From assembly GCA_028712705.1 (NCBI GenBank), contig JAQTPP010000002.1, positions 43,180-107,179 on the forward strand: a stretch of 64,000 bases of DNA, written 5' to 3'. Shown here piece by piece: positions 2,967 through 49,215 of the stretch. Origin of the DNA: Candidatus Daviesbacteria bacterium. Lineage in GTDB: Bacteria; Patescibacteriota; Microgenomatia; Daviesbacterales; UBA10151. Positions within the stretch are counted from its first letter, which is position 1. Each line of letters opens with the position of its first letter. Both the position numbers and the translations under genes were made by a program. A model generated the notes under the pieces. That model was not told where the DNA came from. It saw only the letters and a program-made list of their open reading frames with translations, and ran no database searches.

Positions 2967-4271
2967 GTGGCAAAAGATAAAATTATTTGCGGAATAGATG
3001 TCGGTTCATCAAAAATAGCAACTCTTATTGCATCAGCGGATGAATCCGGTAAATTAAATTTAATTGGAGTTTCTTCAACAGTTTCAAAAGGTGTTAAAAA
3101 AACACAGGTAGTTGATATAGATGAAGCAGTGGAAGCTATAACAGAATCTGTAGAGGCGGCCGAACGAATGGCCGGTTACTCTATTTCGCAAGCATTCATA
3201 TCTCTCGGCGGGCCTCAAATAGAAAGCGTTAACCAGCATGCAGTCGTAGCTGTTTCCGAGCCTGAAGGCGAGATTAAGGAATCAGATGTGAGAAGGGTAA
3301 ATGATGCGGCTCGGGCAATGTCGCTTCCTTCATCAAGGGAAATACTTCATGTGATCCCGCGCACTTTTACAGTTGACGGACAAGAGGGTATAAAAGATCC
3401 GACAGGAATGACCGGAGTGAGGCTTGAAACGGAAACACACATTATTACCGGCTCTGCAACTTCAATGAGAAATCTTGTCAAATGTATTTCGCAAGTAGGA
3501 ATTGATGTAACGGAGTTAGTTTTTTCAGGTATTGCCTCGGCGTTGGCTGTTTTAACCGATACGGAAAAGGAATTAGGGGTGGTCTTAGTCGATATTGGCG
3601 GAGAAACAACAGATGTTGTCGTTTTTATAGATGGATCTGTTGCTTATTCGTCAGTTGTACCGATTGGTGCGCGTCATATCACTTCAGATATGGCTGTAGG
3701 GCTTCGGGTGTCACTCGAATCGGCAGAGAAAATCAAATTGTCGTTGAATAAGATTCCAAAAATTCCCGCAATGGCTGAAGAAACAGAAGAAGAAAATAGT
3801 AAAGCTAACCTAAATCACAAGAAAAAAGATGAGGAGGTAATAGATGTTAAGTCTTTGGGGATTCAGGAGGACATACAAAAAATTTCCCGCAAATCAGTAG
3901 TTGACGGAATTATTAAACCCCGATTACAGGAGATATTTAAATTTGTTGGTAAAGAAATTAAAAAGAGCGGTTTTGGAACACAAACACCGTCTGGTTTGGT
4001 GCTCTGCGGAGGCGGTGCCCAAACGATTGGAGTTTTGGAGCAGGCAAAATATGTACTCGGTTTTCCTGCAAGGCTTGGCACTATTGAAGGCTTGTCAGGA
4101 CTTGTAGAAGAAATAGATTCTCCTGCGTTTGCATCTGCGGCCGGACTTATTTTTTATGGGGCGACACAAAATACTCAAGGTCAATTGCATATACCTGTTT
4201 TATCCGGAAGCTTACCGATTAAAGGAATGATTCAAAAAGGAATAGATTTAGTAAAATCATTTCTGCCCTAG
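2967..4271 (+). CDS. ftsA: Cell division protein FtsA (actin-like ATPase)
   Basis: 434 aa. 'GIDVGSSKI' phosphate-1 motif and 'LCGGGAQ' motif. GTG start. Lies immediately upstream of ftsZ. Confidence 0.85.
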   Translation: MAKDKIICGIDVGSSKIATLIASADESGKLNLIGVSSTVSKGVKKTQVVDIDEAVEAITESVEAAERMAGYSISQAFISLGGPQIESVNQHAVVAVSEPEGEIKESDVRRVNDAARAMSLPSSREILHVIPRTFTVDGQEGIKDPTGMTGVRLETETHIITGSATSMRNLVKCISQVGIDVTELVFSGIASALAVLTDTEKELGVVLVDIGGETTDVVVFIDGSVAYSSVVPIGARHITSDMAVGLRVSLESAEKIKLSLNKIPKIPAMAEETEEENSKANLNHKKKDEEVIDVKSLGIQEDIQKISRKSVVDGIIKPRLQEIFKFVGKEIKKSGFGTQTPSGLVLCGGGAQTIGVLEQAKYVLGFPARLGTIEGLSGLVEEIDSPAFASAAGLIFYGATQNTQGQLHIPVLSGSLPIKGMIQKGIDLVKSFLP

Positions 4272-4335: not shown

Positions 4336-5496
4336 ATGTTAATTAAACCTGATGTTCAACGATTTGCCAAGATTAAAGTGATGGGATTGGGAGGCGGCGG
4401 TTCCAATTCTTTAAACTTAATGATCTCCATGCAGCAGATTCAAGGAGTAGAGTTTGTGGCTGTAAATACAGATGCCCAGGCTTTGCTTAATAACCAATCT
4501 CCTACTAAAGTTCAAATCGGAGAAACTTTAACCAAGGGATTGGGCTCGGGAGGAGATCCTGAAGTGGGCAGGCAAGCTGCTGAAGAATCCTCGCAAAAAC
4601 TTGAAGATGTGTTGTCTGATGCCGATATGGTATTTCTAACTGCCGGAATGGGCGGAGGAACAGGAACGGGTTCCATACCGATTGTGGCTCAGGTTGCAAA
4701 AAATCTGGGCGCTTTGACTGTTGCTGTTGTTACCAAGCCTTTTTCTTTTGAAGGCACAAGACGCATGATGGTGGCGGAAGAAGGGATAGAAAAACTTAAA
4801 GATAAAGTAGACGCCTTGATTGTTATTCCTAATCAGCGGCTTTTGGAAACGGTTGAAAAAAATATGACTTTGCAGGAGGCATTCAAATTGGCAGATTCGG
4901 TGTTGGGTCAGGGTGTCCAGGGTATTTCCGATTTGATTACAATGCCAGGTCTTATTAATGTTGATTTTGCCGATGTAAAAACTATTATGTCTAATGCCGG
5001 TTCGGCGCTCATGGGAATCGGTGTGGCAGGCGGAGACAATCGGGCCGCTGCGGCGGCCAGGATGGCAATAGCATCACCGCTTCTCGAAGTTTCAATTGAG
5101 GGAGCAAAAGGCGTGCTTTTCAATATTGTCGGCGGATCTGATTTGTCAATGACAGAGGTGAATGAAGCTGCTCAAATCATTGCCCAAGCTGCAGATCCGG
5201 ATGCCAATATAATCTTTGGTGCAACTATTAAAGAAGATCAGCTGGATCAGATAAAGATTTCGGTTATAGCAACAGGTTTTGATGAAACAAGAAGAAGACT
5301 GCGGGAGTATATAGGGACCGGTATAGGCTCCGGTTCTCTTCAACAACAAACTAATCCCTGGGTAAAATCAACTCCGGTAGCGGATGAGCCCGAAATACCG
5401 CAAGCATTATCAGAACAAGAAGAAACCGTCAATGAACAGACTAATGAAAATGATGAAGATTTAGAAATCCCAGCATTTCTAAGGTCTAATCGTTAA
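4336..5496 (+). CDS. ftsZ: Cell division GTPase FtsZ
   Basis: Tubulin signature 'GGGTGTG', plus 'NTDAQAL' and 'GLGGGGSN' motifs. Confidence 0.95.
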
Positions 5497-5545
5497 AATA
5501 GAGATTTTGACATAAGATTAAATTATTGTTAATATTATTTAAGTT

Positions 5546-5617
5546 ATGAATATCCAAAATTCGATAAGCATTATTATTGCAATTATTACCTCCAGGAAGG
5601 GAGGGTTCTTCGCGTAA
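5546..5617 (+). CDS. Putative Ile-rich leader peptide (MNIQNSISIIIAIITSRKGGFFA)
   Basis: 23-codon ORF with 7 Ile codons. Overlaps the 5' arm of an alternative stem upstream of a hairpin plus U8 tract. Located directly upstream of the cimA-like gene. Confidence 0.4.
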   Translation: MNIQNSISIIIAIITSRKGGFFA

Positions 5618-5669
5618 CTTAAATTAAGTTTCGCAGAAAGGAAACCTCCCAAAAAAGGGGGTTTTTTTT
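5595..5669 (+). promoter_or_regulatory. Putative transcription attenuator: alternative stems plus intrinsic terminator (U8)
   Basis: GGGAGGGTT (5599-5607) is complementary to AACCTCCC (5643-5650). CTCCC (5646-5650) pairs with GGGGG (5657-5661), followed by TTTTTTTT. Confidence 0.4.
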
Positions 5670-5676
5670 GTGGAAA

Positions 5677-7218
5677 ATGAACAGATTTATTAAATCAAAG
5701 AAAATTGAGACATATGATACAACGCTACGAGATGGTGCCCAAGATCCGCGATCAAGGTCTTCTGTGGAGAAAAAATTAAAGATAGCAAGTCTCCTTCAGG
5801 ATTTTGGGTTTGATTATATTGAAGGTGGTTGGCCCGGAGCAAATGAGGTTGATACAGAGTTTTTCCGACGAGCCGGAAAGATTTTTAAGAAAAATAAATT
5901 AGTGGCTTTTGGTATGACTATAAAAAATACTCAAGTAGAAAAAGATGTAGGTTTAAAAAAGTTACTGGAAAGTGGGACAAGTATAATTACTCTGGTTGGA
6001 AAAACTTGGAAACAAAATGTTGAAAGGACGATTCGTATACCGGGGCAACAAAATTTGGATAATATTTACGAGAGTATTAGATTTTTAGTAGCACAAGGAA
6101 GAGAAGTACTTTTCGATGCGGAACATTGGTTTGACAGTTACAGACAGAATAAAAATTATGCATTTAAGACTCTTGAGGCGGCTCTTGCCGGAAGAGCAAG
6201 CAGATTAATTCTTTGTGATACCAGAGGCGCTGGTACTGATAGGTTTATATTTGAGGCAACCGCCGCTGCTATTGCCAGATTTCCTGAGGCTCGATTTGGT
6301 ATTCATGTGCATAACGATGGAGGATTGGCTGTAATAAATACCATCCGGGCAGTTGAAGCAGGAGCAATTCATGTTCAGGGCACTATGAATGGGATTGGAG
6401 AAAGAGTCGGTAATTTGGATTGGTATTCTTTTTTGTCAACTGCGCAGTTTAAATATGCAATTGAAATGGGGTTAGACTTGACTAAATTAACTGGATTTGC
6501 CCATACTGTTGCACTCATCAGCGGAATTCCTGTTCCTATTAATGCTCCATATGTAGGTTTATATGCTTTTGCCCATAAAGGTGGCCTTCATGCTTCCGGT
6601 CAAAGAAGAGACCGGGAGGCTTATGAACATATTAAGCCGGAGTGCGTCGGTAATAAACGGGTATATGTTTTTTCGGAACAAGGCGGTAGCGCTCATTTGG
6701 AGTTTATGTTAAAAGATCATGGTTATACTTTAAATAGAAAAAACCCAAAATTTAGGGCATTATTAGGAAAAATGAAGCAATATCAATGTTTTGGTAGAGC
6801 TCAAGAAACTTTATTCCTTTATGAAAATATGGAAGGAGGATTAATGCCGTTTACCATTTTAGATGGGAGTGGTGTAGAAGATTTTAGCCCGCTGCCACCA
6901 AAAGCTTATGTTAATGTGCAGGTTAATGGTGACAAATATCATAAAGAAGCAATTGGGGATGGGCCAATAAATGCATTTGATATTGCACTTAAAAAAGCCC
7001 TATCAGCTAAATATCCGGAAGTAAATGAAATAAGGCTTTTGGGATATGGAGTTAGTTTACCAAATGGTGATCCCAGTACGGCAGCTGAAGTTGAAGTTTG
7101 TATTAAGGTAGAATTTGATGGTGAAGAAATAACTTCTGTAGTTCGTGACACTAACCAGCAAAGAGCAGGCGAAAAGGCCTTAGCAGATGCCTATAATTGC
7201 TGTATTATAGAGAATTAA
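5677..7218 (+). CDS. cimA: Citramalate synthase-like / 2-isopropylmalate synthase family protein (LeuA/CimA, TIGR00977-like)
   Basis: Motifs 'YDTTLRDGAQ', 'EGGWPGAN' and 'HVHNDGGLAVINT' of the HMGL-like superfamily. A C-terminal regulatory-domain-like region is present. Start taken at the ATG at 5677 rather than the TTG at 5668. Confidence 0.65.
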   Translation: MNRFIKSKKIETYDTTLRDGAQDPRSRSSVEKKLKIASLLQDFGFDYIEGGWPGANEVDTEFFRRAGKIFKKNKLVAFGMTIKNTQVEKDVGLKKLLESGTSIITLVGKTWKQNVERTIRIPGQQNLDNIYESIRFLVAQGREVLFDAEHWFDSYRQNKNYAFKTLEAALAGRASRLILCDTRGAGTDRFIFEATAAAIARFPEARFGIHVHNDGGLAVINTIRAVEAGAIHVQGTMNGIGERVGNLDWYSFLSTAQFKYAIEMGLDLTKLTGFAHTVALISGIPVPINAPYVGLYAFAHKGGLHASGQRRDREAYEHIKPECVGNKRVYVFSEQGGSAHLEFMLKDHGYTLNRKNPKFRALLGKMKQYQCFGRAQETLFLYENMEGGLMPFTILDGSGVEDFSPLPPKAYVNVQVNGDKYHKEAIGDGPINAFDIALKKALSAKYPEVNEIRLLGYGVSLPNGDPSTAAEVEVCIKVEFDGEEITSVVRDTNQQRAGEKALADAYNCCIIEN

Positions 7219-7374
7219 AAGAAGTCTCTATGTTGTTATTGTAACTAAATATTCCATTTTTTGGCTATTGCCAATTATTGGAATATTTCTTTAATGACTT
7301 TAATGATTTAATTAATAGTTGCTAACTTAGTATTGCTTAGCTACAATTATAAAAGGTTTTATAGGAAGGTAAGA

Positions 7375-10200
7375 ATGTTTAAATCTGTTTCATCACAAGT
7401 TAATTTTCCGGCTTTGGAGGAAGAATTGCTTAAGTTTTGGAAGGAAAATCAAACTTTTGAAAAATCTATCGACACCAGACCCGAGGATAAAAAATGGACC
7501 TTTCTAGATGGACCTCCTTTTGTGACAGGTACACCACATTACGGCTCCCTTTTATCAAGTATTCCAAAAGATGTGTTCGGTAGATATTGGACAATGAAAG
7601 GTTACAGAGTTCGAAGAGTTTGGGGGTGGGACGGACATGGTCTGCCGGTAGAAAATAAGGTAGAGATAGAGCTTAAAATTAAAAGAAAAAAAGACATTGA
7701 GGAAAAAGTTGGAGTAAAGAGATTTATTGAGGAGTGCTTAAAGTACGTTAATCAGGTTTCCTCCGAGTGGGAATGGTACATTACTCATATCGGCAGATGG
7801 GTTGATTTTCAGCATGCTTACAAAACCTGGGATCTTTCTTACATGGAATCAGTGATGTGGGTTTTTAAGCAAATGTATGATAAAAATTTAATTTACAAAG
7901 GCTTGAGAGTTTCGCTGTATTGTCCGCATTGTGCCACGCCGATTTCTAATTTTGAAGTTGCCATGGATGCAGATAATTATAAAGATATAAGCGAGGCGAC
8001 AGCTGTTTATAAATACCAGCTTAAAGATGAACCTGACACTTTTCTTTTGGCTTGGTCCACCACCCCTTGGACTAAATTGGTTACTTTAAGTTTGGCAGTT
8101 AATCCAACGTTAACTTATGTAAAAGTAAATCAGGGGAAGGAAAATTATATTTTGGCAAAAGGTACGATAAAAATGCTCAAAGGTGACTTTAAAAAGTTAA
8201 CAGAATTTAAGGGTAAGGATTTAATAAACAAAGAATTTATACCACATTATTCATTTTATAAAATAGATCCCGGACAAAAAGCTTTTGTGGTAGTTGGTGA
8301 TAAGTTTGTGACAGCTGAGGAAGGAACTGGCATTGTGACTTTGGCAGTTTACGGTGAAGAAGATTTGGCTCTCTTACAAAGAGAAAACATTCCTTTAGCG
8401 ATGCATTTGGATGAGGAAGGAATAATAGAAGATTTTGTGCCTCAATTTGCAGGATTAAATTATTTGGAAGCAGATGAAAAAATAATTGATGATTTAAATA
8501 AAAGAGGATTGATATATCGAGTAGACAGTTATATCCATTCTGTACCTCATTGTTGGCGGTGCGGCACTAGACTTTTTTATGCGCCAAAAGATGCTTGGTA
8601 TGTAGATATACAAAAACTTAAACCGCAACTGTTTAAAAATAATGAACCAATTAATTGGTTCCCTAAACATTTTAAGTTTGGTAGGTTTGCCAAAAGTATG
8701 GAAGCTGCTCCTGATTGGAATATTTCCAGAAACAGGTATTGGGGTTCACCTGTACCGGTTTGGGAATGTGAATGCGGAAAAAGGATAGTTCCCGGCTCAA
8801 TTGCGGAGTTAAAAAAGCTTTCTGGTAAAAAAATTACTAATCTTCACAAACCTGATATTGATGAGGTAAAAATAAAATGTTTTAAGTGCCCTAAATTTGC
8901 AAAAAGGGTTCCTGAGGTTTTGGATTCCTGGATTGAAGCAGGTTCTGCTTCTTTTGCCGAAAGACATTTTCCTTTTGAAAAAGATATTAAGCTAGAAGAT
9001 TTTTTCCCGCCGGATTTTATAGCAGAATATACAGGTCAAATTAGAGCCTGGTTTTATGTTCTTCATGTGATTGGAACAGCGCTCTATGATTCTCCGTCTT
9101 TTAAAAATGTTTTGGTAGAAGGGGTGATGCTTGGAACTGATGGTAGAAAGATGAGCAAAAACTACAATAATTACCCGGATCCTAAAGAGTTGATGCAAAA
9201 ATATGGAGGGGATGCGTTAAGACTTTATCTTTTAGGCTCCCCTATTATGAAAGGAGAGGATGTTAATTTTTCAAATGATGGAGTACCAGAGATTACAAGG
9301 GGTTTTATATTGATTTTATGGAACTGCTATAAATATTTTGTCGACTATGCAACCACTTTTGAGTGGGAAAAAAGTAATTTGGAAAATTTAAATATCTTGG
9401 ACAAATGGATTTTATCAAAGCTTGCAAAACTTATCATAGAGGTAACAAAAAGTTATGAAAAATACGATACTTTTTCGGCTGTTAAATGCTTGCGGGAGTT
9501 TATTGTTAATGATTTATCAACTTGGTATATCAGAAGGTCAAGAGATAGGATTAGCGGGGAGAGCGATGCTGCAAGAAATACATCTTTAAGCGTATTGCGC
9601 AAAGTTTTAGTAACTTACTGCAAAATTCTGGCACCTATTGCTCCTTTTGTATCTGAGGAAATTTTTAAGAACTTGACTGGAGACGAATCTGTTCACTTGC
9701 AGGAGTTTCCCAGTGAAGATAAATCAATGTTGGATGAAAAATTAATGGAAGATATGATTGTGGTAAGAAAAATTGCAGAAGCTAGTCATGCCAAAAGAAA
9801 GGAGGCGGGGATTAAACTTAGACAACCTCTCGTCTCTGTTTTATACAAATTGCCAGAGAGATTAAATGAAGAATTGGAAAAAATTCTTGTGGAAGAACTT
9901 AATGTTAAACATATTGAGTATGAAAAGTCCTCATCTGTGGAACCGCAGGTAATTTTGAATACTAATATTACTCAAGAGTTGGCAGAGGAGGGTAAAGCGC
10001 GTGAGTTGATTCGTCAAGTTCAGCAGAACAGAAAAGAACAAAATATGACATTAGCTGATAAAACCAAAATTATTGCTCCAGAATGGCCACATGCTTTTGA
10101 AAAAGAGATATTAAAAAGCACTGTTTCTGTTTCTTTAGAAAATGGTCCGGAACTCAAGGTTTTAAAGGTGCAAGGAAATGAAAATTCTAAAACTTATTAA
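7375..10200 (+). CDS. ileS: Isoleucyl-tRNA synthetase (class I, type 2-like)
   Basis: HIGH-like 'PHYGS', KMSKS 'KMSKN', and 'WNISRNRYWGSPVPVW' resembling the IleRS 'WCISRQRYWG' motif. An editing-domain-sized insert is present. Confidence 0.75.
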   Translation: MFKSVSSQVNFPALEEELLKFWKENQTFEKSIDTRPEDKKWTFLDGPPFVTGTPHYGSLLSSIPKDVFGRYWTMKGYRVRRVWGWDGHGLPVENKVEIELKIKRKKDIEEKVGVKRFIEECLKYVNQVSSEWEWYITHIGRWVDFQHAYKTWDLSYMESVMWVFKQMYDKNLIYKGLRVSLYCPHCATPISNFEVAMDADNYKDISEATAVYKYQLKDEPDTFLLAWSTTPWTKLVTLSLAVNPTLTYVKVNQGKENYILAKGTIKMLKGDFKKLTEFKGKDLINKEFIPHYSFYKIDPGQKAFVVVGDKFVTAEEGTGIVTLAVYGEEDLALLQRENIPLAMHLDEEGIIEDFVPQFAGLNYLEADEKIIDDLNKRGLIYRVDSYIHSVPHCWRCGTRLFYAPKDAWYVDIQKLKPQLFKNNEPINWFPKHFKFGRFAKSMEAAPDWNISRNRYWGSPVPVWECECGKRIVPGSIAELKKLSGKKITNLHKPDIDEVKIKCFKCPKFAKRVPEVLDSWIEAGSASFAERHFPFEKDIKLEDFFPPDFIAEYTGQIRAWFYVLHVIGTALYDSPSFKNVLVEGVMLGTDGRKMSKNYNNYPDPKELMQKYGGDALRLYLLGSPIMKGEDVNFSNDGVPEITRGFILILWNCYKYFVDYATTFEWEKSNLENLNILDKWILSKLAKLIIEVTKSYEKYDTFSAVKCLREFIVNDLSTWYIRRSRDRISGESDAARNTSLSVLRKVLVTYCKILAPIAPFVSEEIFKNLTGDESVHLQEFPSEDKSMLDEKLMEDMIVVRKIAEASHAKRKEAGIKLRQPLVSVLYKLPERLNEELEKILVEELNVKHIEYEKSSSVEPQVILNTNITQELAEEGKARELIRQVQQNRKEQNMTLADKTKIIAPEWPHAFEKEILKSTVSVSLENGPELKVLKVQGNENSKTY

Positions 10201-11266
10201 TCTGCCGATAACTTTAAGCAGTTTTCTGCTTGTATCAATTGGCATATTGGTTATTTATTCTTCCTCAAAAGAGTTAGCCGTTCAGCAAATTATATTTACA
10301 ATTATTGGTATGGTTTTTTTCTTTTTTATTTCACAATTTGAACTCCAATCACTTAAACATCTGGTAAAGCCGCTTTATATTCTTATTGTTATTACGCTTG
10401 TGGCCGTGTTTATTTTAGGTATAGAAACAAGGGGAGTTTTTCGTTGGTTTTCTTTGGGAATCTTTAATATTCAACCGTCAGAGTTTGCTAAACCAATTTT
10501 AATTTTATTTTTGAGCAAATTCTGGTCGGAAAATAATCCTTCCTGGCGAAATATTTTTAAGAGCATACTCTGGTCTGCGCCTGTTTTTTTGCTTATTTTT
10601 AAGCAACCGGATTTAGGTTCCGCACTGACTATAATCGCAATTTGGCTGGGATTATTATTTGCGGCTCATATCTCTATAAAGAAGATATTAATACTTGTTT
10701 TAATTATTATTTTTATAATTCCGGCAAGCTGGTCTTTTCTGCACAGTTATCAAAAAGAACGCATTATAAGTTTTTGGGCACCCGAATCTGATCCTTTGGG
10801 CAAAGGTTATAACTTGATTCAATCAACAATTGCAGTGGGATCAGGACAACTTCTGGGGAGGGGTTTGGGTAGCGGAACACAGTCAAGATTGCAATTTTTA
10901 CCGGAATTTCGGACAGATTTCATATTTGCTTCAATTGCAGAAGAAATGGGTTTTTTAGGATCTCTTCTGATTTTATCGCTATACCTATTTTTGTTAAGTT
11001 ACTGTTTAAGGGAGGCGCAAAAAACAAACAACTCGTTTAACCTGCTGGTGATATTCGGTGTGGTTTCGATGTTTTTGTTTCAGGTTGTCGTTAACATTGG
11101 AATGAATATAGGGTTACTGCCGATTACAGGTATTACCTTGCCATTGATATCGTATGGTGGGAGTTCGTTAATCTCAACCTTTTTATCTTTGGGGATGGTT
11201 GCATCTTCTGCCAGGAATAGAGCTGACTCTGATTCAATCGGAGTTGACCACATTCAGTTTGCATGA
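10178..11266 (+). CDS. SEDS family peptidoglycan glycosyltransferase (FtsW/RodA)
   Basis: Ten-TM profile. Motifs 'QPSEFAKP', 'KQPDLGSALT' and 'PEFRTDFIFASIAEEMGFLGS'. Confidence 0.8.
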   Translation: MKILKLINLPITLSSFLLVSIGILVIYSSSKELAVQQIIFTIIGMVFFFFISQFELQSLKHLVKPLYILIVITLVAVFILGIETRGVFRWFSLGIFNIQPSEFAKPILILFLSKFWSENNPSWRNIFKSILWSAPVFLLIFKQPDLGSALTIIAIWLGLLFAAHISIKKILILVLIIIFIIPASWSFLHSYQKERIISFWAPESDPLGKGYNLIQSTIAVGSGQLLGRGLGSGTQSRLQFLPEFRTDFIFASIAEEMGFLGSLLILSLYLFLLSYCLREAQKTNNSFNLLVIFGVVSMFLFQVVVNIGMNIGLLPITGITLPLISYGGSSLISTFLSLGMVASSARNRADSDSIGVDHIQFA

Positions 11267-11308
11267 ACGTGGTTGACTTGTAGCTTGGGAAAGGATAAAA
11301 TCTTCTTC

Positions 11309-11650
11309 GTGTTAAATTACGCTATTTGTGAAATTTCAGGAAAACAATATAAGGTTGTTCCTGGTAAAGTTTTTGAAATTAGCCTTCAGAAAGAGGGAGA
11401 AGATATCGAGGCGGACGTTTTGCTTTTATCCGAGGACGGAAAATTAGAAATAGGCACGCCATATCTCAAAAAAAAGTTAACAGTTAAGCGGGTGGAAGAT
11501 ACAAAAGGACCGAAAATAAGAGTCAGTAAATTTCACGCGAAAGCAAATTACCGACGGACAACCGGTTATAGATCAAAAATTACCAGAGTAGTATTACCCC
11601 TGCCCACATTGTCACGCAAAGCGTTGCAGGCGGGTGTGAAAAAACCTTGA
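11309..11650 (+). CDS. rplU: 50S ribosomal protein L21
   Basis: 'YAICEISGKQYKV' matches the L21 N-terminus. GTG start chosen in-frame with the 11273 ORF. Confidence 0.8.
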   Translation: MLNYAICEISGKQYKVVPGKVFEISLQKEGEDIEADVLLLSEDGKLEIGTPYLKKKLTVKRVEDTKGPKIRVSKFHAKANYRRTTGYRSKITRVVLPLPTLSRKALQAGVKKP

Positions 11651-11683: not shown

Positions 11684-11929
11684 ATGGCACATAAAACAGG
11701 TGGAGGAAGTACCAGAAAAAATAGAGATTCAATTTCCAAGAGATTGGGAGTAAAGCTCTATGGCGGAGAAAAAGCGCAGTCCGGGAATATTATAGTACGC
11801 CAAAAAGGGAATAAATTTTATCCGGGAGCAGGCACAAAACAGGGTAATGATTATACAATTTTTGCTACCGTTTCCGGAAAAGTTGTATTCAAAAAGAGAA
11901 TTGATAAGATCATTATAGATGTAGTTTAA
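11684..11929 (+). CDS. rpmA: 50S ribosomal protein L27
   Basis: '[21 protein letters not shown]' canonical L27 N-terminus. Confidence 0.9.
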
Positions 11930-11931
11930 GT

Positions 11932-12789
11932 ATGGATCAACAAGAACAGATTTACGAACTTGAGATAGATTTACTACAGCCCAACCCGCTACAGCCAAGA
12001 GGATTGATCAGCCCTGAATCTTTATTGGAACTTGCAGAATCGATAAAATCTCATGGAATTCTGGAGCCTTTAGTTGTTGCGAAAACTCCTGCCGGATACC
12101 AGATTATAGCCGGTGAGAGGAGATGGAGAGCTTCTAAGGTCGCTGGTTTAGGAAAAGTACCGGTGATAATCAGGGAAACCAGCCCTCAGGGAATGCTGGA
12201 AATGGCTATAGTTGAAAATGTGCAAAGGATAGATTTAAACCCGCTGGAGAGGGCACAAGCGTATAGGAGATTAATGGATGAATTTGATTTGACTAATCAG
12301 GAAATCGCAGAGAGGGTGTCGAAAAGTCCTTCATATATTTCCAATACGATCAGGTTATTAATTTTACCGGATGCACTCAAAGATGCCTTAATGTCCGGAG
12401 CCACGACAGAAGGTCATGCAAGGGGATTGGCTGCACTGGAAGATCCGCATCTGATAATAAATGCCTACAAAGAAGTATTGAAGAGAAATCTTTCCGTACG
12501 CGGGACGGAAGAATTAGTCCGCCGGATTAGAACAAACATGGGTATCGGTCCGAAAAAAATGGCAGATATTCCGCATATGCGGATTATCTCCGAAGAGGTT
12601 GATAAAATACAGTCGGATATTGGCAATGTTTTATCCTCCGTAACAGATAAATCGCAGACTAAATGTTTCTTGAGCGGAAAGAGGGCCAAGCTGGAATTAA
12701 TTATTGAAGGCGATCCGAATAAAACTACACCGGTTTTAGAAGATTTACGTCAGGCAATCGTCGGGTATTTTAAATTAAAGACGGGCTAG
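11932..12789 (+). CDS. parB: Chromosome partitioning protein ParB/Spo0J
   Basis: ParB box 'GERRWRA', 'LQPNPLQPR', and an HTH region. Confidence 0.85.
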   Translation: MDQQEQIYELEIDLLQPNPLQPRGLISPESLLELAESIKSHGILEPLVVAKTPAGYQIIAGERRWRASKVAGLGKVPVIIRETSPQGMLEMAIVENVQRIDLNPLERAQAYRRLMDEFDLTNQEIAERVSKSPSYISNTIRLLILPDALKDALMSGATTEGHARGLAALEDPHLIINAYKEVLKRNLSVRGTEELVRRIRTNMGIGPKKMADIPHMRIISEEVDKIQSDIGNVLSSVTDKSQTKCFLSGKRAKLELIIEGDPNKTTPVLEDLRQAIVGYFKLKTG

Positions 12790-18011: not shown

Positions 18012-19966
18012 AAACTAAAATTTTGCTCCTTTGCAAATTTAATGAAAGCATCAGCTATTTGATCTAAATCATGATCTAAAGCTTTATTTCCCTTACTATC
18101 AAAAGTTATTTCTCCTTTTTCATCTTTTTTATAGACATAATCTCCGGAATTATCTTTCCCACTTCTCCTAGAAACAGCCATAAAGATTGGGTAATCCTCT
18201 AAAGGTTTTTCACCTTCCGTCCATTTTTGCAAAAATAATACAGATGTCTTTGTGCCTGTGTGTGGTTTAAAAGTATTAACCTGTAACCCTACAACTGCCA
18301 AAATTCTGGCCTTATCAAAAATCCAATTCCGGATATATTCCATATTAGTATTATTCAAAACTCCTTGTGGCAAAACTATGGCTAATCTGCCACCAGGCTT
18401 AATTAGATTCAAAGCTCTTTCAATAAATAGAATATGACGTTCCATTTTATTGCGCAGTTTGCCTTTATCATTTTTAGCCAGTTCATAGGCATTTAAAACA
18501 GTTCTATCTATAATTTCACCGGCAAATGGTGGATTAATTAAAAGCATATCAAAACCAAAATACTTAAAATACTCCTGGTTTTCCTTATCTTTGTCATAAT
18601 CGTTAAATCTTAATAGCCTTTGTTGTAGTTCCGCCCTAGCTTTTAATTTTTCGCTATCATCACCTTGCCATTCTTTTGGATTTAGAGAATTTAATTTAAA
18701 AATATGCGACCTGCCATCACCTGCAATAAGCATTAAAGCCCGGGAAATTTTGACCGGTTTATCGTCAAAATCTATTCCGTAAATATAGTTTCTTGCATAA
18801 TCTATTCTAGTATCGCGAGAGACGTTCTCCGGCATATTACCCCAAACCCATTGCATAGCGTGGATTAAAAATCCGCCAGATCCGGAAGCGGGGTCTGTTA
18901 CATACTCATCTTTTTTGGGATTTAGCATTTTTACTGCCATATCAATAACATGACGGGGAGTAAAATATTGGCCCCTGTTACCCTTGGCAACATCCGGAAG
19001 TAAGTACTCAAAGGCTCGATCTATGATTTCCAAATTAGCATCAAGCAATTTAACTTTTTCAAATTCCCCTATGCAAACAGAAAGATGCGTTGGGGACAGT
19101 CTTATTGTTTCACCCGGCAAAAACATACCCGGCCATTCTTTTTGTGAATTTTCGAATAATCTACTTATATTGTCATAAGTAATTCTTGGATCTTTTGACT
19201 GGCGGAAAAGTAGCTCGCCATGTCTATCTCTGGCATACTTCTCATCATAGAGTTTTGCATAAATAAGTTTAAAAATTTCATTAAAAGAATCCTCTCCTGC
19301 ACCTGCCAGAACTAATTCCTCTAAAACCTTAATCACCCTTACTAAATCAAATTTTGTTTCAAGTTGATCAAGCGTAAGTTTTTCTTCCAGAACATCATCT
19401 ACTGTCTGATTTGATCTGGGAATATCACGCAAAGTATTTTCAAATTCATGAGGGTAAGGTCTATACAAAATTACTTTAGTTACGCCGTTTGATAAAACTC
19501 CGATTGGAGCACCTTGCGCATTTAGATAACTTTTTACTTGTTCCAATCCGTCTTTTGCATCCGGACTTTTGATTTCTAAAATTATATGAGGTGTTTCTTT
19601 GTCTTCGTCGTAAACTACAATATCTGCTGCTTTTTCGCGTATCTCCCTTCCAAAATTTACTGATTTTTCAACAGCTATTCTTTCGTAAGAGTAGTTATAA
19701 GTTTTGTTTAGTCTATAAAGCCAAAGCTGGCGGACAATTTCTTCAGGTTCGCCAGCTTGTTTTTCTTCGCTCCATATAAACAAATCTGTGTTTCTTTTAA
19801 AACATTTAAGGTAAAATTTGCCTTTTTCTTTTTCAAATATATCTAAAATTTCTGAGGGGTTTATTTTTTCAAACTCTGTAAGGCCAAATTGAACATCTGG
19901 CCTACGAAAAATTTTATTGACGATCTGTTCTGTTATACTCTTAGCCATTAATTTTACTCTTTCCAA
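18002..19966 (-). CDS. hsdM: Type I restriction-modification N6-adenine DNA methyltransferase subunit (HsdM)
   Basis: Motif I 'DPASGSGGFL' and motif IV 'NPPF'. HsdM_N-like N-terminus. The true start may be the Met at 19948, which leaves a 4-nt gap after the lexA stop. Confidence 0.85.
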   Translation of the reverse strand: MERVKLMAKSITEQIVNKIFRRPDVQFGLTEFEKINPSEILDIFEKEKGKFYLKCFKRNTDLFIWSEEKQAGEPEEIVRQLWLYRLNKTYNYSYERIAVEKSVNFGREIREKAADIVVYDEDKETPHIILEIKSPDAKDGLEQVKSYLNAQGAPIGVLSNGVTKVILYRPYPHEFENTLRDIPRSNQTVDDVLEEKLTLDQLETKFDLVRVIKVLEELVLAGAGEDSFNEIFKLIYAKLYDEKYARDRHGELLFRQSKDPRITYDNISRLFENSQKEWPGMFLPGETIRLSPTHLSVCIGEFEKVKLLDANLEIIDRAFEYLLPDVAKGNRGQYFTPRHVIDMAVKMLNPKKDEYVTDPASGSGGFLIHAMQWVWGNMPENVSRDTRIDYARNYIYGIDFDDKPVKISRALMLIAGDGRSHIFKLNSLNPKEWQGDDSEKLKARAELQQRLLRFNDYDKDKENQEYFKYFGFDMLLINPPFAGEIIDRTVLNAYELAKNDKGKLRNKMERHILFIERALNLIKPGGRLAIVLPQGVLNNTNMEYIRNWIFDKARILAVVGLQVNTFKPHTGTKTSVLFLQKWTEGEKPLEDYPIFMAVSRRSGKDNSGDYVYKKDEKGEITFDSKGNKALDHDLDQIADAFIKFAKEQNFSFWR

Positions 19967-46784: not shown

Positions 46785-48435
46785 TAAATCGATAGATTTT
46801 GCTTGGTTGAATTGATATAATTTTATAGTTTGCTGCCAAGTCTGACTTGGTTGGTATATTTGACGCGCCGCGTTCGTCTAGTGGCCTAGGACGTTGGGTT
46901 TTCATCCCAGAAATCACGGGTTCGACTCCCGTACGCGGTACCAAATCCCGAGTTAGCGGGGCGGCGCAGAGCGCCGCCCATGGGTTTAGAGCTCCACAGC
47001 AAACTATTTTGTCGGTGAGCTTGAGGTTCGAGCCGAAGATTTTTTGTGCAAGTACCTTTTTTGCTTCCATGTCTTCCCCCCTTGCGGTATTAGCTGCGTT
47101 AGCAGCTTCCACTATCCAGTTTTTGAAAGGTTCGAGCCAAACATTTTGCGTTTGTTGAAAGCGGAGGATTTGTTCTTCTAACGTCTTCTTTTTAGATAAC
47201 AGTTCAGCTTTTTTGTTAAGGTAAGAATCTCTCTCAATATCCTGGTCAAGGTATGAATCAAGAAGACGTTGAAGTTTATCATTTAAACTTCTAATCTCCG
47301 CTTGTTTCTCCTCAACAAACGCATGGCAGGATTGGGCTACATTTTTTTCTTCTACAGATAATCTATCCAGCATTTTATCTGCCCAATCCTGACGCAAAGA
47401 AACTGATGCAATATTATCTGAAAGCTGTCGATCAAGTTCCTCCTGCCTAATAAAAGGTTGATTACATTTAACAGTTTTGGACTTTTTCGTACATCTGTAA
47501 TACAAATAGGTGGCATGATGATTTGTTTCCTTATAAAATTTTTCCTTAAATTCAGCCGTAATCATCATGCCGCACTGCCCGCAGCGAAAAAGTCCCAGGT
47601 ATGGTTTTAAAACAAGAGGTTTTTTCCAAGACCTGCTTCGTTTCCTCCATACCTCTTGTACGCTATCCCACAGTTTCTTTGAAATGATCGGCGTATGTTT
47701 TCCTTCGTGGATCTCGCCCCAATATTTAAAATGGCCATAGTAGAAAGGGTTAGTTAAGATCTGTTTAGTTACTCTATCAGCTTTCCATTCCTGTCCTTTT
47801 CTGGTCACTATGCCATTTTTAGCCAAAAAGTCCCGGATATCCATTATCCGGTAGTTACCGGTAGCAAACAGTTCAAAAGCCTTTTTAACAATAGTAGCCC
47901 GCTTTTTATCCAAAACTATAGTTTTGATAAGGAGGTCGTTAAGGTAGCCAACAGGAGGGATACCAGGATATATACCATTTCTGACTTTTTGGCGTAAACC
48001 TCTTTTGGTGTTTTCTGAAAGCGAGTCCACGAAGTATTTGCTTTGCCCAAATGCGATGGTGAGCATAAATTTTCCCTGGGGTGTAGCATCAAACCAGAAT
48101 TGAGGAAACTTAAGATACTTAATTTTACCGGTATCAATAAGATAAATAATTTTGCCGCCATCCACACTATTTCTCGCAAGTCTGTCAGGATGCCAAGCTA
48201 AAATTCCATCTGCTTCCCCGGCTTCAATCCTTTCGATCATACTGTTAAAAATAGGCCTGCCAGGGATTTTAGCTGTCTGCTTTTCAACAAGCTCTTCTAA
48301 GATAATAATACCTTCACGCTTGGCATACTCCCTTAGCTCTGTAATTTGAGCAACAATTGATAAAGCCTGCTTATCTTCTACGTCTGTAGACTTGCGGGCA
48401 TATAAGAACATTTTATTCGTATTTGTAATACTCAT
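46750..48435 (-). CDS. Large serine recombinase (resolvase/invertase catalytic domain, recombinase domain, zinc ribbon, coiled coil)
   Basis: N-terminus 'LYARKSTDVEDKQALSIVAQ' with catalytic Ser, 'DRLARN', a Cys-rich zinc ribbon ('CGQCG...C..C') and a C-terminal coiled coil. The ORF's 3' end reads antisense through IR-L and tRNA-Glu, so the real C-terminus is uncertain. Confidence 0.8.
   Translation of the reverse strand: MSITNTNKMFLYARKSTDVEDKQALSIVAQITELREYAKREGIIILEELVEKQTAKIPGRPIFNSMIERIEAGEADGILAWHPDRLARNSVDGGKIIYLIDTGKIKYLKFPQFWFDATPQGKFMLTIAFGQSKYFVDSLSENTKRGLRQKVRNGIYPGIPPVGYLNDLLIKTIVLDKKRATIVKKAFELFATGNYRIMDIRDFLAKNGIVTRKGQEWKADRVTKQILTNPFYYGHFKYWGEIHEGKHTPIISKKLWDSVQEVWRKRSRSWKKPLVLKPYLGLFRCGQCGMMITAEFKEKFYKETNHHATYLYYRCTKKSKTVKCNQPFIRQEELDRQLSDNIASVSLRQDWADKMLDRLSVEEKNVAQSCHAFVEEKQAEIRSLNDKLQRLLDSYLDQDIERDSYLNKKAELLSKKKTLEEQILRFQQTQNVWLEPFKNWIVEAANAANTARGEDMEAKKVLAQKIFGSNLKLTDKIVCCGALNPWAALCAAPLTRDLVPRTGVEPVISGMKTQRPRPLDERGASNIPTKSDLAANYKIISIQPSKIYRFIKSLEFCGILQ
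46867..46943 (+). tRNA. tRNA-Glu (anticodon TTC), CCA encoded
   Basis: Acceptor GCCGCGT/ACGCGGT, anticodon loop TTTTCAT, T-loop TTCGACT. Its last 20 nt are repeated at 63223-63242. Confidence 0.8.
46939..47019. repeat. 81-bp perfect inverted repeat, left copy (partner 48840-48920)
   Basis: Exact reverse complement verified by hand. Overlaps the last 5 nt (TACCA) of tRNA-Glu. Contains the GC hairpin GGCGGCGC-AGA-GCGCCGCC. Confidence 0.85.
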
Positions 48436-48486
48436 AAAATAACCTTGAACCCTGTCGGGTATAAAAAGAATTTTTGCGATAAATTA

Positions 48487-48640
48487 TTGGCAGTTTGTTC
48501 CATATCTTTTGTGAAAGCGGATTGACTCCGCTTTCACTTAAATGGCCACCTTGGTGATCTCAACCGGTGAAGGTTGTCCAAGATGGCCATTAAAAAACTC
48601 CACCGAATGTTGAGATCGCAAACATATTACAAACTGCCAA
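48487..48640. promoter_or_regulatory. Complex palindromic site upstream of the recombinase gene (candidate recombination site / regulatory region)
   Basis: 12-bp IR TTGGCAGTTTGT/ACAAACTGCCAA. It encloses a 10-bp-stem hairpin (48511-48537) and a ~50-bp imperfect palindrome AATGGCCACCTTGG...CCAAGATGGCCATT centred on AACCGGT (48541-48591). Confidence 0.4.
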
Positions 48641-48839
48641 AAGAAAATACAATATAGCAAAAATTCAATTGCGCATTTAGGCAAAGTTTCCCCACCTTAA
48701 GTGGGGAATTATTGATTTATATTTATATAAAAATAAGCAAAGCTTTTCTTTTTGCTTTGCAAAAAATAAAAAATCGCAAGGGGAATTAAAATTTCAAAAA
48801 AAGGTACTGCAATTAAAAGAATCTTGGGCTTTCTGTTTC

Positions 48840-48920
48840 CTCACCGACAAAATAGTTTGCTGTGGAGCTCTAAACCCATGGGCGGCGCTCTGCGCCGCCC
48901 CGCTAACTCGGGATTTGGTA
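48840..48920. repeat. 81-bp perfect inverted repeat, right copy
   Basis: Reverse complement of 46939-47019. Abuts and overlaps by 3 nt the 184-bp IR copy A. Confidence 0.85.
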
Positions 48921-49101
48921 GCGATCTATGATATCGCTCGGACTTATTTTATCAGGAATTATTAATCGGCGCATCGTATCGTTACGCTTCGGCCGGCTAA
49001 TCGCCGGCCTTGCTAATCACCGACGTATCGGTTCGCTCCGCTCAGGCCGCCTTCGGCGGCCTTCGCTTACCCCGATTCAATCGGGGCTTAAAACTAATCT
49101 T
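48918..49101. repeat. 184-bp perfect inverted repeat, copy A (partner 62667-62850); GC-rich with at least 4 internal hairpins
   Basis: Exact reverse-complement match verified by hand. Internal hairpins include GGCCGGC-TAATC-GCCGGCC, GGCCGCC-TTC-GGCGGCC, CCCGA-TTCAA-TCGGG and GCGAT-CTATGAT-ATCGC. Confidence 0.85.
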
Positions 49102-49215
49102 ATCTTTGGAAATTTTCGCATTTTCTATCCTATCTTTCTGTCTGTTTTATTTTGAGTAGCTTTTGTCTAAAGAGCACTTTTGTTACTCAAACAAAATGTC
49201 TGTTATACTTTATTT

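Follow-up and report, generated by a model that had tools for sequence, protein, structure and literature searches.

Introduction

The enterobacterial leader-peptide attenuators include trpL, hisL, leuL, thrL, ilvL (upstream of ilvGMEDA), ivbL (ilvBN), pheL and pheM (pheST). Here, we describe a short leader upstream of a citramalate synthase-type gene (cimA) in a Candidatus Daviesbacteria bacterium, which belongs to the candidate phyla radiation (CPR)/Patescibacteria. The leader is located in a 64,000-nt stretch of contig JAQTPP010000002.1 (the window; 37% GC), and all coordinates are positions in this window unless another locus is named. Like the enterobacterial attenuators, the leader combines a promoter, a short open reading frame (ORF) with a run of regulatory codons, mutually exclusive 1:2, 2:3 and 3:4 helices, and an intrinsic terminator before the gene; in the pheM-pheST system, too, a leader peptide is linked to an aminoacyl-tRNA synthetase. 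In contrast to these systems, the host belongs to the CPR and the target is cimA, of the citramalate route, instead of the ilv genes. Its regulatory codons are for isoleucine (Ile) alone, instead of the mixture of Ile, Val and Leu codons seen in ilvL and ivbL. The leader also lacks a Shine-Dalgarno sequence, and its sequence similarity to the enterobacterial leaders is limited to a weak match to the Phe_leader family.

We consider this locus to be a ribosome-mediated, Ile-specific leader-peptide transcription attenuator of the cimA-type gene, which probably adds to the expression of the isoleucyl-tRNA synthetase gene (ileS) by read-through, and we put the probability of this reading at roughly 85%. 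The first-pass annotation, made from the letters of the window, had proposed an isoleucine attenuator, and this interpretation is supported by a layout conserved in all 14 orthologous loci and by the assignment of the enzyme to the CimA family. Sequence data show directly the elements of the leader and their conservation, the covarying alternative pairings, and the family to which the enzyme belongs. We regard the Ile leader as an uncatalogued attenuator of textbook mechanism, without an Rfam family.

To our knowledge, descriptions of CPR/Patescibacteria generally credit them with few recognised regulatory RNAs, and a literature search on leader peptides in CPR/Patescibacteria or before citramalate synthase found no relevant report. 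In actinobacteria, leader peptides on leaderless transcripts have been described for ilvB, leuA and trp of Corynebacterium and as Cys-rich upstream ORFs (uORFs) in mycobacteria (PMC10272879, PMC1262725). As in these systems, a uORF on a leaderless or near-leaderless transcript would attenuate amino acid biosynthesis genes, with the leaderless state deduced here from how closely the ATG follows the -10 box. The present leader resembles them in neither sequence nor structure, and both the lineage and the target gene are different. Among the Firmicutes, attenuators of branched-chain amino acid genes include the Rli60/ilv leader of Listeria (PMC5864092) and a Leu-rich attenuator peptide of S. aureus (PMC5794164). 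These share with the present leader a peptide-dependent switch between terminator and antiterminator 5' of branched-chain biosynthesis genes, but they are part of the multi-layer CodY control of the ilv-leu operon, whereas the leader described here carries regulatory codons for Ile only and stands before one cimA gene.

Organization of the leader region

All elements of the leader are contained in the 180-nt gap between ftsZ (4336-5496; TIGR00065, 420.7 bits) and the synthase gene (Table 1). A promoter scan places a near-consensus promoter (10/12, with an extended -10 element) between ftsZ and the uORF. The ATG of the uORF is found 10 nt 3' of the -10 box and lacks a Shine-Dalgarno sequence; because of this spacing, the 5' untranslated region (UTR) of the leader mRNA is probably 0-6 nt long (3-4 nt in the window).

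The ORF of 23 codons with 7 Ile reported by the first-pass annotation was recovered exactly. In addition to the Ile codon cluster, it contains Ile codons at 5552-5554 and 5564-5566, and the last Ile codon ends 1 nt 5' of region 1. That annotation had also let the ORF end inside GGGAGGGTT, which needs correction, as this segment (region 2) falls within codons 18-21, 8 nt 5' of the stop codon. The pairing that it proposed between GGGAGGGTT and AACCTCCC, overlapping a CTCCC/GGGGG hairpin followed by T8, is borne out in that all of these elements are present. The terminator arms, CTCCC at 5646-5650 and GGGGG in region 4, and the T8 tract were read in the sequence and also found by a terminator scan; the T8 tract is separated from the ATG of the synthase gene by GTGGAAA.

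A short ORF rich in Ile is by itself weak evidence, since 4 of the 342 ATG-started short ORFs in the window contain at least 7 Ile codons. As such ORFs arise by chance in AT-rich DNA, we gave preference to comparative evidence over single-locus statistics. Nevertheless, the leader terminator is one of just three strict intrinsic terminator hairpins in the 64 kb, and the fold of the leader (z = -3.75) is better than that of all 200 shuffles. The combination of promoter, terminator, fold and a layout conserved in 14/14 loci is not due to chance.

Conservation of the leader in related loci

For comparison we used 14 independent loci of the clade, in which the synthase is 48-69% identical to the protein of the window; three derive from genome contigs and the remainder from assemblies reached via protein look-up. 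The same leader layout is present in every one of them. The uORF consists of 21-23 codons with 5-7 Ile codons, and the cluster follows the pattern II(I)-x-II(I) throughout. Thus, the orthologous loci lack neither the Ile-rich uORF nor the alternative stems, the outcome that the first-pass annotation had named as a refutation, and the Ile codons that it suggested comparing are conserved. Start and stop codons are invariant and the uORFs differ in length solely by 3 or 6 nt, which is a coding signature. In these leaders 69 of the 79 Ile codons are ATT (87%), versus 54% in four genes of the window.

The segments ACCUCC and GGGAGG are found in all 14 loci, with the stop codon four codons past the GGA. 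They are followed in each case by the internal hairpin, a terminator with a stem of 7-9 bp and U6-8, and the start of the synthase gene. A promoter of the form TTGACA-17-TGnTAnnAT lies 6-13 nt 5' of the uORF ATG in most loci, where the L070 promoter was read by eye and those of L063, L065 and L072 agree less closely with the consensus. The distance from the -10 box to the ATG is 6-7 nt in eight loci and 9-13 nt in the others, again with no Shine-Dalgarno sequence.

Upstream of the leader, the neighbouring gene varies, being ftsZ, an M20 peptidase, toxin-antitoxin-like ORFs, an acetyltransferase, small ORFs or a gene on the opposite strand. Because the leader always stays with cimA while this neighbour differs between loci, we assign the leader to cimA. 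This bears on the possibility that the hairpin is an ordinary ftsZ terminator beside a chance AT-rich short ORF and that no switch exists. Such an explanation would suit the position of the hairpin downstream of ftsZ and the frequency of Ile-rich short ORFs given above, but it is at odds with the strong promoter between ftsZ and the uORF, with the variable upstream neighbours, and with a reading frame, an Ile cluster and alternative pairings that are conserved with covariation. On account of this promoter and these neighbours we rejected it, and leave it virtually no probability.

The C-terminus of the leader peptide is conserved as well (T/A-S-x-K-G-G-x-L-x), with TS-x-KGG kept by the majority of the 14 leaders and by metagenome copies. 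This could indicate that the peptide itself acts, whether through nascent-chain arrest, as a sensor, or as a small hydrophobic peptide with a function of its own, and that codons are not sensed. However, these residues are encoded exactly where the RNA forms the paired segments ACCUCC and GGGAGG, and the RNA pairings persist where the peptide differs, as in L063 (..ITPKGVSLA) and L069 (..ITPQWRRSFA). Moreover, sister leaders on the same scaffold carry runs of Leu, Phe or aromatic codons matched to the gene that follows, a pattern that fits codon sensing. A role for the peptide product in place of codon sensing therefore seems very unlikely to us.

Alternative RNA structures

Folded alone, the hairpin of helix 1:2 (5589-5593/5600-5604) has a free energy of -8.7 kcal/mol, the antiterminator (5599-5650; helix 2:3 with the internal stem) of -23.7 kcal/mol, and the terminator (helix 3:4) of -10.4 kcal/mol. 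Helices 1:2, 2:3 and 3:4 exclude one another, in agreement with the mutually exclusive structures that a folding check had been expected to reveal. A covariance model was built from the terminating ("off") structure, comprising helices 1:2 and 3:4, and used to re-align the 14 leaders (alignment A3); a second alignment, A4, holds 63 distinct leader sequences.

In A3, 94.8% of the cells of helices 1:2 and 3:4 are paired, a value that slid controls (at most 68%) and shuffles (0/500) do not reach, and 15 cells show double changes. The base of helix 2:3, to which the alignment had not been fitted, is paired in 88% of cells in A3, with slid controls at 53% or lower, and none of 500 shuffles reaches the observed value when two pairs of the internal stem are counted with it. 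Here, the pair A72-U120 is replaced by G-C in three sequences, and a U-A pair by C-G in three. In the larger alignment A4, helix 1:2 is 95.5% paired, helix 3:4 91.4%, and the base of 2:3 88.1% (slid controls at most 61%). Over both alignments, pairing amounts to 94-95.5% in helix 1:2 and to 91-95% in the terminator helix, where 3-5 pairs show compensatory changes.

Alternative terminator and antiterminator helices could also belong to an RNA switch that works without a ribosome, such as a T-box-like sensor of tRNA-Ile, a metabolite riboswitch or the target of an RNA-binding protein, with the uORF being incidental. In Firmicutes, ileS and many ilv and leu genes are under the control of T-boxes. 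As in these T-boxes, charging of tRNA-Ile is predicted to decide between terminator and antiterminator in our leader. In contrast to a T-box, there is no specifier loop or T-box motif, and sensing would occur through the translating ribosome. At gathering thresholds, the window gave no Rfam family other than tRNAs. For 5400-5800, a permissive scan (E <= 10) returned no T-box and a single sub-threshold resemblance, to the leader-peptide family Phe_leader (RF01859). At 27 bits (E = 0.017), versus a gathering score of 55, this match falls short of family membership. In addition, the leader is just ~125 nt long, and a switch without a ribosome leaves unexplained the invariant ATG and stop codon, the indels in multiples of three, and the amino acid runs that match the downstream gene. 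We regard a non-ribosomal switch as extremely unlikely.

The citramalate synthase-type enzyme

Citramalate synthase condenses pyruvate and acetyl-CoA, after which LeuCD and LeuB give 2-oxobutyrate; IlvA provides the other route to this compound. CimA proteins of the TIGR00977 type are the Geobacter sulfurreducens-type enzymes of the threonine-independent Ile pathway. The first-pass annotation had described the product of the gene after the leader as a LeuA/CimA-family synthase, and our data narrow this to the CimA type. It has the three-domain architecture of citramalate synthase (PF00682, PF22617, PF08502), and the catalytic motifs LRDGAQ, HVHNDGG and NGIGERVGN are intact. Its best family is TIGR00977 (401.8 bits), far above the models for LeuA (at most 223 bits) and homocitrate synthase (at most 176 bits), so that clustering with homocitrate enzymes, another result that could have counted against the proposal, did not emerge.

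An identical protein (100%) is encoded in a Candidatus Daviesbacteria metagenome-assembled genome. Sequence identity is 38-41% with proteins named citramalate synthase, compared with 24-27% for LeuA (LeuA paralogues of related CPR contigs included). The protein falls into a CPR clade with identities of 49% or more, after which there is a gap to ~41% for CimA-type proteins from outside the CPR. A PDB sequence search returned solely remote LeuA, homocitrate synthase and CimA relatives (93-146 bits), which is uninformative with respect to specificity. Like the Geobacter-type CimA, the enzyme scores best with TIGR00977 and shares its domain architecture, including a LeuA-type allosteric domain; unlike it, the enzyme falls below the curated cut-off and forms part of the separate CPR clade. 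Together, family scores and sequence identities support the view that the downstream enzyme belongs with the citramalate synthase family.

Proposed mechanism

The locus shows the order promoter-uORF-gene, a codon cluster matching the pathway, an intrinsic terminator and competing antiterminator strands, as is characteristic of an attenuator. The steps from transcription start and uORF translation to ribosome stalling, kinetic order of folding and Ile-dependent read-through are predicted as follows. Transcription would begin a few nucleotides 5' of the uORF ATG, resulting in an mRNA that is leaderless or nearly so; we infer translation of the uORF from such an mRNA because of the absence of a Shine-Dalgarno sequence and the short distance to the -10 box. 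When charged tRNA-Ile is plentiful, the ribosome would pass the Ile codons and reach the stop codon. As region 2 lies 8 nt before the stop, the terminating ribosome would cover it, allowing region 3 to pair with region 4, and the terminator hairpin with its U8 tract would end transcription 8 nt 5' of the cimA start codon. When charging of tRNA-Ile is low, the ribosome would stall in the Ile codon cluster and hide region 1, while region 2 stays free. Regions 2 and 3 could then form the base of the long antiterminator hairpin before region 4 is synthesized, and RNA polymerase would read into cimA. If the leader is not translated, formation of helices 1:2 and 3:4 is possible, and transcription is expected to terminate.

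We modelled the ribosome as a 28-nt unpaired mask in equilibrium folds. In transcripts ending before region 4, region 3 pairs with region 2 in 14/14 loci (mean probability 0.56-1.0), a range that covers folds without a ribosome and with a ribosome stalled in the Ile cluster. With the ribosome on the stop codon, the pairing probability of region 3 in the same transcripts drops to 0.01-0.72, and once region 4 is present the probability of the terminator is 0.46-0.97. In these models the geometry fits attenuation: the antiterminator strand would be left accessible by a ribosome stalled at the Ile codons and masked by one at the stop codon.

Several observations weigh against the proposed attenuator. 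In the full-length equilibrium fold with a stalled ribosome, the terminator is still favoured in 5/14 loci, and in the window the antiterminator outcompetes the alternatives at equilibrium even without a ribosome. As full-length equilibrium folds thus give a mixed picture, the switch must be kinetic, as in the trp model. Further, the model needs leaderless initiation, given that a Shine-Dalgarno sequence is lacking. The synthase remains below the TIGR00977 cut-off of 450 bits, albeit still ~180 bits above the LeuA and homocitrate synthase models. Finally, leuCD, leuB and ilvBCDE were not seen in the 64-kb window or in the CPR loci; a BLAST comparison of the window with cimA neighbours in 59 other genomes and with genes of L074, made to look for leuC, leuD, leuB, ilvC, ilvD, aspartate kinase, ilvA and DAHP synthase, found none of these.

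The last two observations would also suit a true Ile attenuator in which the enzyme is an orphan or repurposed LeuA-family synthase outside the Ile pathway and ileS is the relevant target. Such a view is in line with several metagenome loci in which the leader precedes ileS and a small ORF replaces cimA, and with the description of Microgenomates, and of CPR genomes generally, as lacking complete amino acid pathways (PMC7143001). Against it, the leader is kept with cimA in the 7/14 loci where ileS is not adjacent, ileS carries a promoter-like element of its own, and the catalytic motifs and the allosteric domain of the synthase are retained. Relatives also retain leuA, ilvA, ridA and aromatic-pathway genes under matching leaders. 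We therefore consider an enzyme outside the Ile pathway unlikely, though with a small real chance of being correct, and favour an Ile attenuator acting on a citramalate synthase.

A conserved segment, R-TGGARAAAATATG, is located directly 3' of the U-tract (5662-5679 in the window, 1140-1160 in L064, 1829-1849 in L068). An ATG or GTG 7-8 nt past the Shine-Dalgarno-like GGGAGG of terminator arm 4 opens a mini-ORF of 4-7 codons; in some loci the start codon of cimA lies within its overlap. The arrangement may indicate translational coupling, which would be possible only with the terminator arm free.

Table 1. Positions of the leader elements, of the genes that follow and of related leaders and genes in other loci.
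Feature	Locus	Positions	Strand	Description
Promoter	Window	5507-5535	+	-35 box TTGACA (5507-5512); 17-nt spacer, TG at 5527-5528; -10 box TAATAT (5530-5535)
Leader-peptide uORF	Window	5546-5617	+	MNIQNSISIIIAIITSRKGGFFA; 23 codons including 7 Ile; ATG at 5546, TAA at 5615-5617
Ile codon cluster	Window	5570-5587	+	ATT ATT ATT GCA ATT ATT; regulatory codons; conserved pattern II(I)xII(I)
Region 1	Window	5589-5593	+	CCUCC; partner of region 2 in the anti-antiterminator hairpin
Region 2	Window	5599-5607	+	GGGAGGGUU (DNA GGGAGGGTT); alternative partners are region 1 and region 3
Antiterminator, upper part	Window	5608-5642	+	Internal stem-loop; takes in the uORF stop codon
Region 3	Window	5643-5650	+	AACCUCCC (DNA AACCTCCC); 3' arm of antiterminator or 5' arm of terminator
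Region 4 and U8	Window	5657-5661 (GGGGG), 5662-5669 (U8)	+	Intrinsic terminator with region 3
CimA-type synthase gene	Window	5677-7218	+	513 aa; HMGL-like, HCS_D2 and LeuA_dimer (allosteric) domains
Promoter-like site	Window	7319-7347	+	TTGCTA-17-TACAAT; inside the 156-nt cimA-ileS spacer
ileS (isoleucine-tRNA ligase)	Window	7375-10200	+	TIGR00392, 753 bits; possibly partly co-transcribed with the attenuated transcript
cimA-ileS spacers with -10-like motif	L008; L064; L068; L070; L069	5561-5596; 2745-2781; 3413-3445; 4386-4417; 4582-4669
Sister leaders	L002	1697-1853, 2278-2433
Sister leaders	L065	4731-4844, 5134-5288
Sister leaders	L074	~9766-9860, 11685-11785, 12449-12545, 19479-19613
MSKTIVYSFRNTENLLGLLLLALLLGAFLGRSF	L002			Leu-rich; before short LeuA (NF002086, 470 bits)
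MKSQISITLALLLTR	L074			Leu run; before LeuA
MASQQFIIEIIINS	L074			Ile-rich; before threonine dehydratase and RidA
MRTFELKNWFYFYFTS...	L074			Trp/Phe/Tyr run (NWFYFYF); before DAHP synthase and DHQ synthase
MQNLRRYFNFFFTFA	L065			Phe-rich (YFNFFFTF); before 80-aa ORF
Several uORFs				Mixed Leu/Val/Ile; before small ORFs
Aromatic-pathway genes	L063; L002; L074	1-2587; 18-1660; 19667-21275
Phycisphaeraceae leaders	L031; L039	~3779-3890; ~3755-3875		..AIIIIID.. and ..AIIIIRG..; GC hairpin and U-tract follow

The downstream ileS gene

In the window, cimA is followed by ileS, whose ATG at 7375 is in frame with an ORF spanning 7333-10200 and is confirmed as the start by homology. No terminator-like hairpin was found in 7219-7374. 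The first-pass annotation had placed ileS directly after the synthase gene; this holds for the window, but the two genes are adjacent in just 7 of the 14 loci, and ileS seems to have its own promoter. The seven loci (the window, L008, L064, L068, L070, L063 and L069) form one subclade, with spacers of 9-88 nt in the relatives, whereas cimA is followed by a convergent recJ in the other seven.

The short cimA-ileS spacers have an extended -10-like motif in common, TTTTTTG(T/C)TA(G/A)AAT, located 9-13 nt 5' of the ileS ATG. It suggests a separate promoter for ileS with a very short 5' UTR, and raises the possibility that leaders in this lineage are often short or missing.

A wider family of amino acid-specific leaders

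A pattern scan of metagenomes returned 57 loci (L075-L131), of which ~50 show the same scaffold. Ile leaders precede cimA in six loci, ileS in six (directly or past a small ORF) and ridA-ilvA in one; in a lower-scoring group of four loci, an Ile/Val leader is found before ilvE-ilvD-ilvB. Other metagenome leaders are followed by prephenate dehydratase genes behind small ORFs, and many by small ORFs without a known family. Weaker relatives near the CPR loci were found with the covariance model and then read (Table 1).

The Ile leaders before ilvA or ridA-ilvA and before ileS, and the Leu leaders before leuA, support the predicted specificity for Ile, as do the Trp/Phe/Tyr-rich leader of DAHP synthase and the unrelated Ile-run uORFs ahead of cimA in Phycisphaeraceae. 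A separate LeuA behind a Leu-rich leader in relatives likewise supports reading the leader of cimA as one for Ile. In L072, a full-length LeuA (550.6 bits, above the cut-off) is encoded directly 5' of the Ile leader and cimA. If the prediction is correct, the leader could serve as a built-in functional label, which for this below-cut-off CPR clade argues for citramalate synthase (Ile) over LeuA (Leu).

As regards the LeuA proteins themselves, L074 encodes a split LeuA (10001-11483), with a catalytic part of 424 aa followed by a separate ORF of 75 aa that matches the C-terminal allosteric region of the full-length LeuA of L072 (64.6% identity). The short LeuA of L002 (403 aa) is without a regulatory domain.

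Related CPR contigs also encode chorismate mutase, an aminotransferase, a prephenate dehydrogenase/dehydratase fusion, DAHP synthase and DHQ synthase. Since these genes are present on the related contigs, the lineage keeps parts of aromatic amino acid synthesis. The Ile, Leu and aromatic leaders provide indirect but strong evidence that the enzymes function and that tRNA charging sets their expression. Some Daviesbacteria-type CPR, at least, would then regulate their own synthesis of branched-chain and aromatic amino acids.

Attenuation in what looked like a reduced genome had been flagged as unexpected. The setting is indeed unusual, but attenuation is common in the lineage, and the surprise therefore concerns the biology of the lineage and not a single locus. 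The RNA family, with ~60 distinct sequences and absent from Rfam, could be added there for annotation.

Many of the metagenome copies precede small ORFs of 67-225 aa (e.g. the leaders at L082 6257-6388, L100 1582-1674 and L114 807-942). In seven loci, a small ORF (X) occupies the place of cimA, in the order leader, X, recJ (opposite strand) and cca. Several of the small proteins share the N-terminal motif F-x-D-x-T-A-x-x-A-V/I (FRDPTASQAVQYV, WFDPTASQAVIHV, FPDTTASLAVNNV). The products of the small leader-controlled ORFs matched no Pfam or NCBIfam family, and no homologue was found in the window. The leader points to small proteins of unknown function that are predicted to be switched on by Ile shortage.

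Taken jointly, these observations allow a tentative reading, somewhat more doubtful than not, of a lineage-wide, amino acid-specific attenuation regulon in Microgenomates-type CPR, in which the small proteins are starvation effectors and Ile is made de novo by the citramalate route. If so, one scaffold (CCUCC / GGGAGG / CCUCCC / GGGAGG-U) with leaderless peptides would sense Ile, Leu, Phe or aromatic amino acids and switch on the initial enzymes of the biosynthetic routes that were kept (cimA, ilvA, leuA, DAHP synthase) as well as ileS and the small unknown proteins. These proteins, several of them with the F-x-D-x-T-A-x-x-A-V/I motif, would then serve these host-dependent, ultra-small bacteria as effectors of amino acid starvation.

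Other observations

Outside the CPR, 59 cimA loci include two, from Phycisphaeraceae (Planctomycetota) genomes, in which cimA is preceded by an unrelated uORF containing 4-5 Ile codons in a row (Table 1). Rfam searches of 17 non-CPR cimA loci gave no match. The Phycisphaeraceae leaders look like a case of convergence, with an independent Ile attenuator on cimA.

Elsewhere in the window, a gene-free stretch of ~750 nt (48435-49180) contains a row of GC-rich perfect hairpins at 48870-49090. The stretch, in which no tRNA, tmRNA or meaningful Rfam match was found, may represent clustered palindromes or a structured RNA of no known class; the z scores of its fold are -5.3 (+ strand) and -6.7 (- strand).

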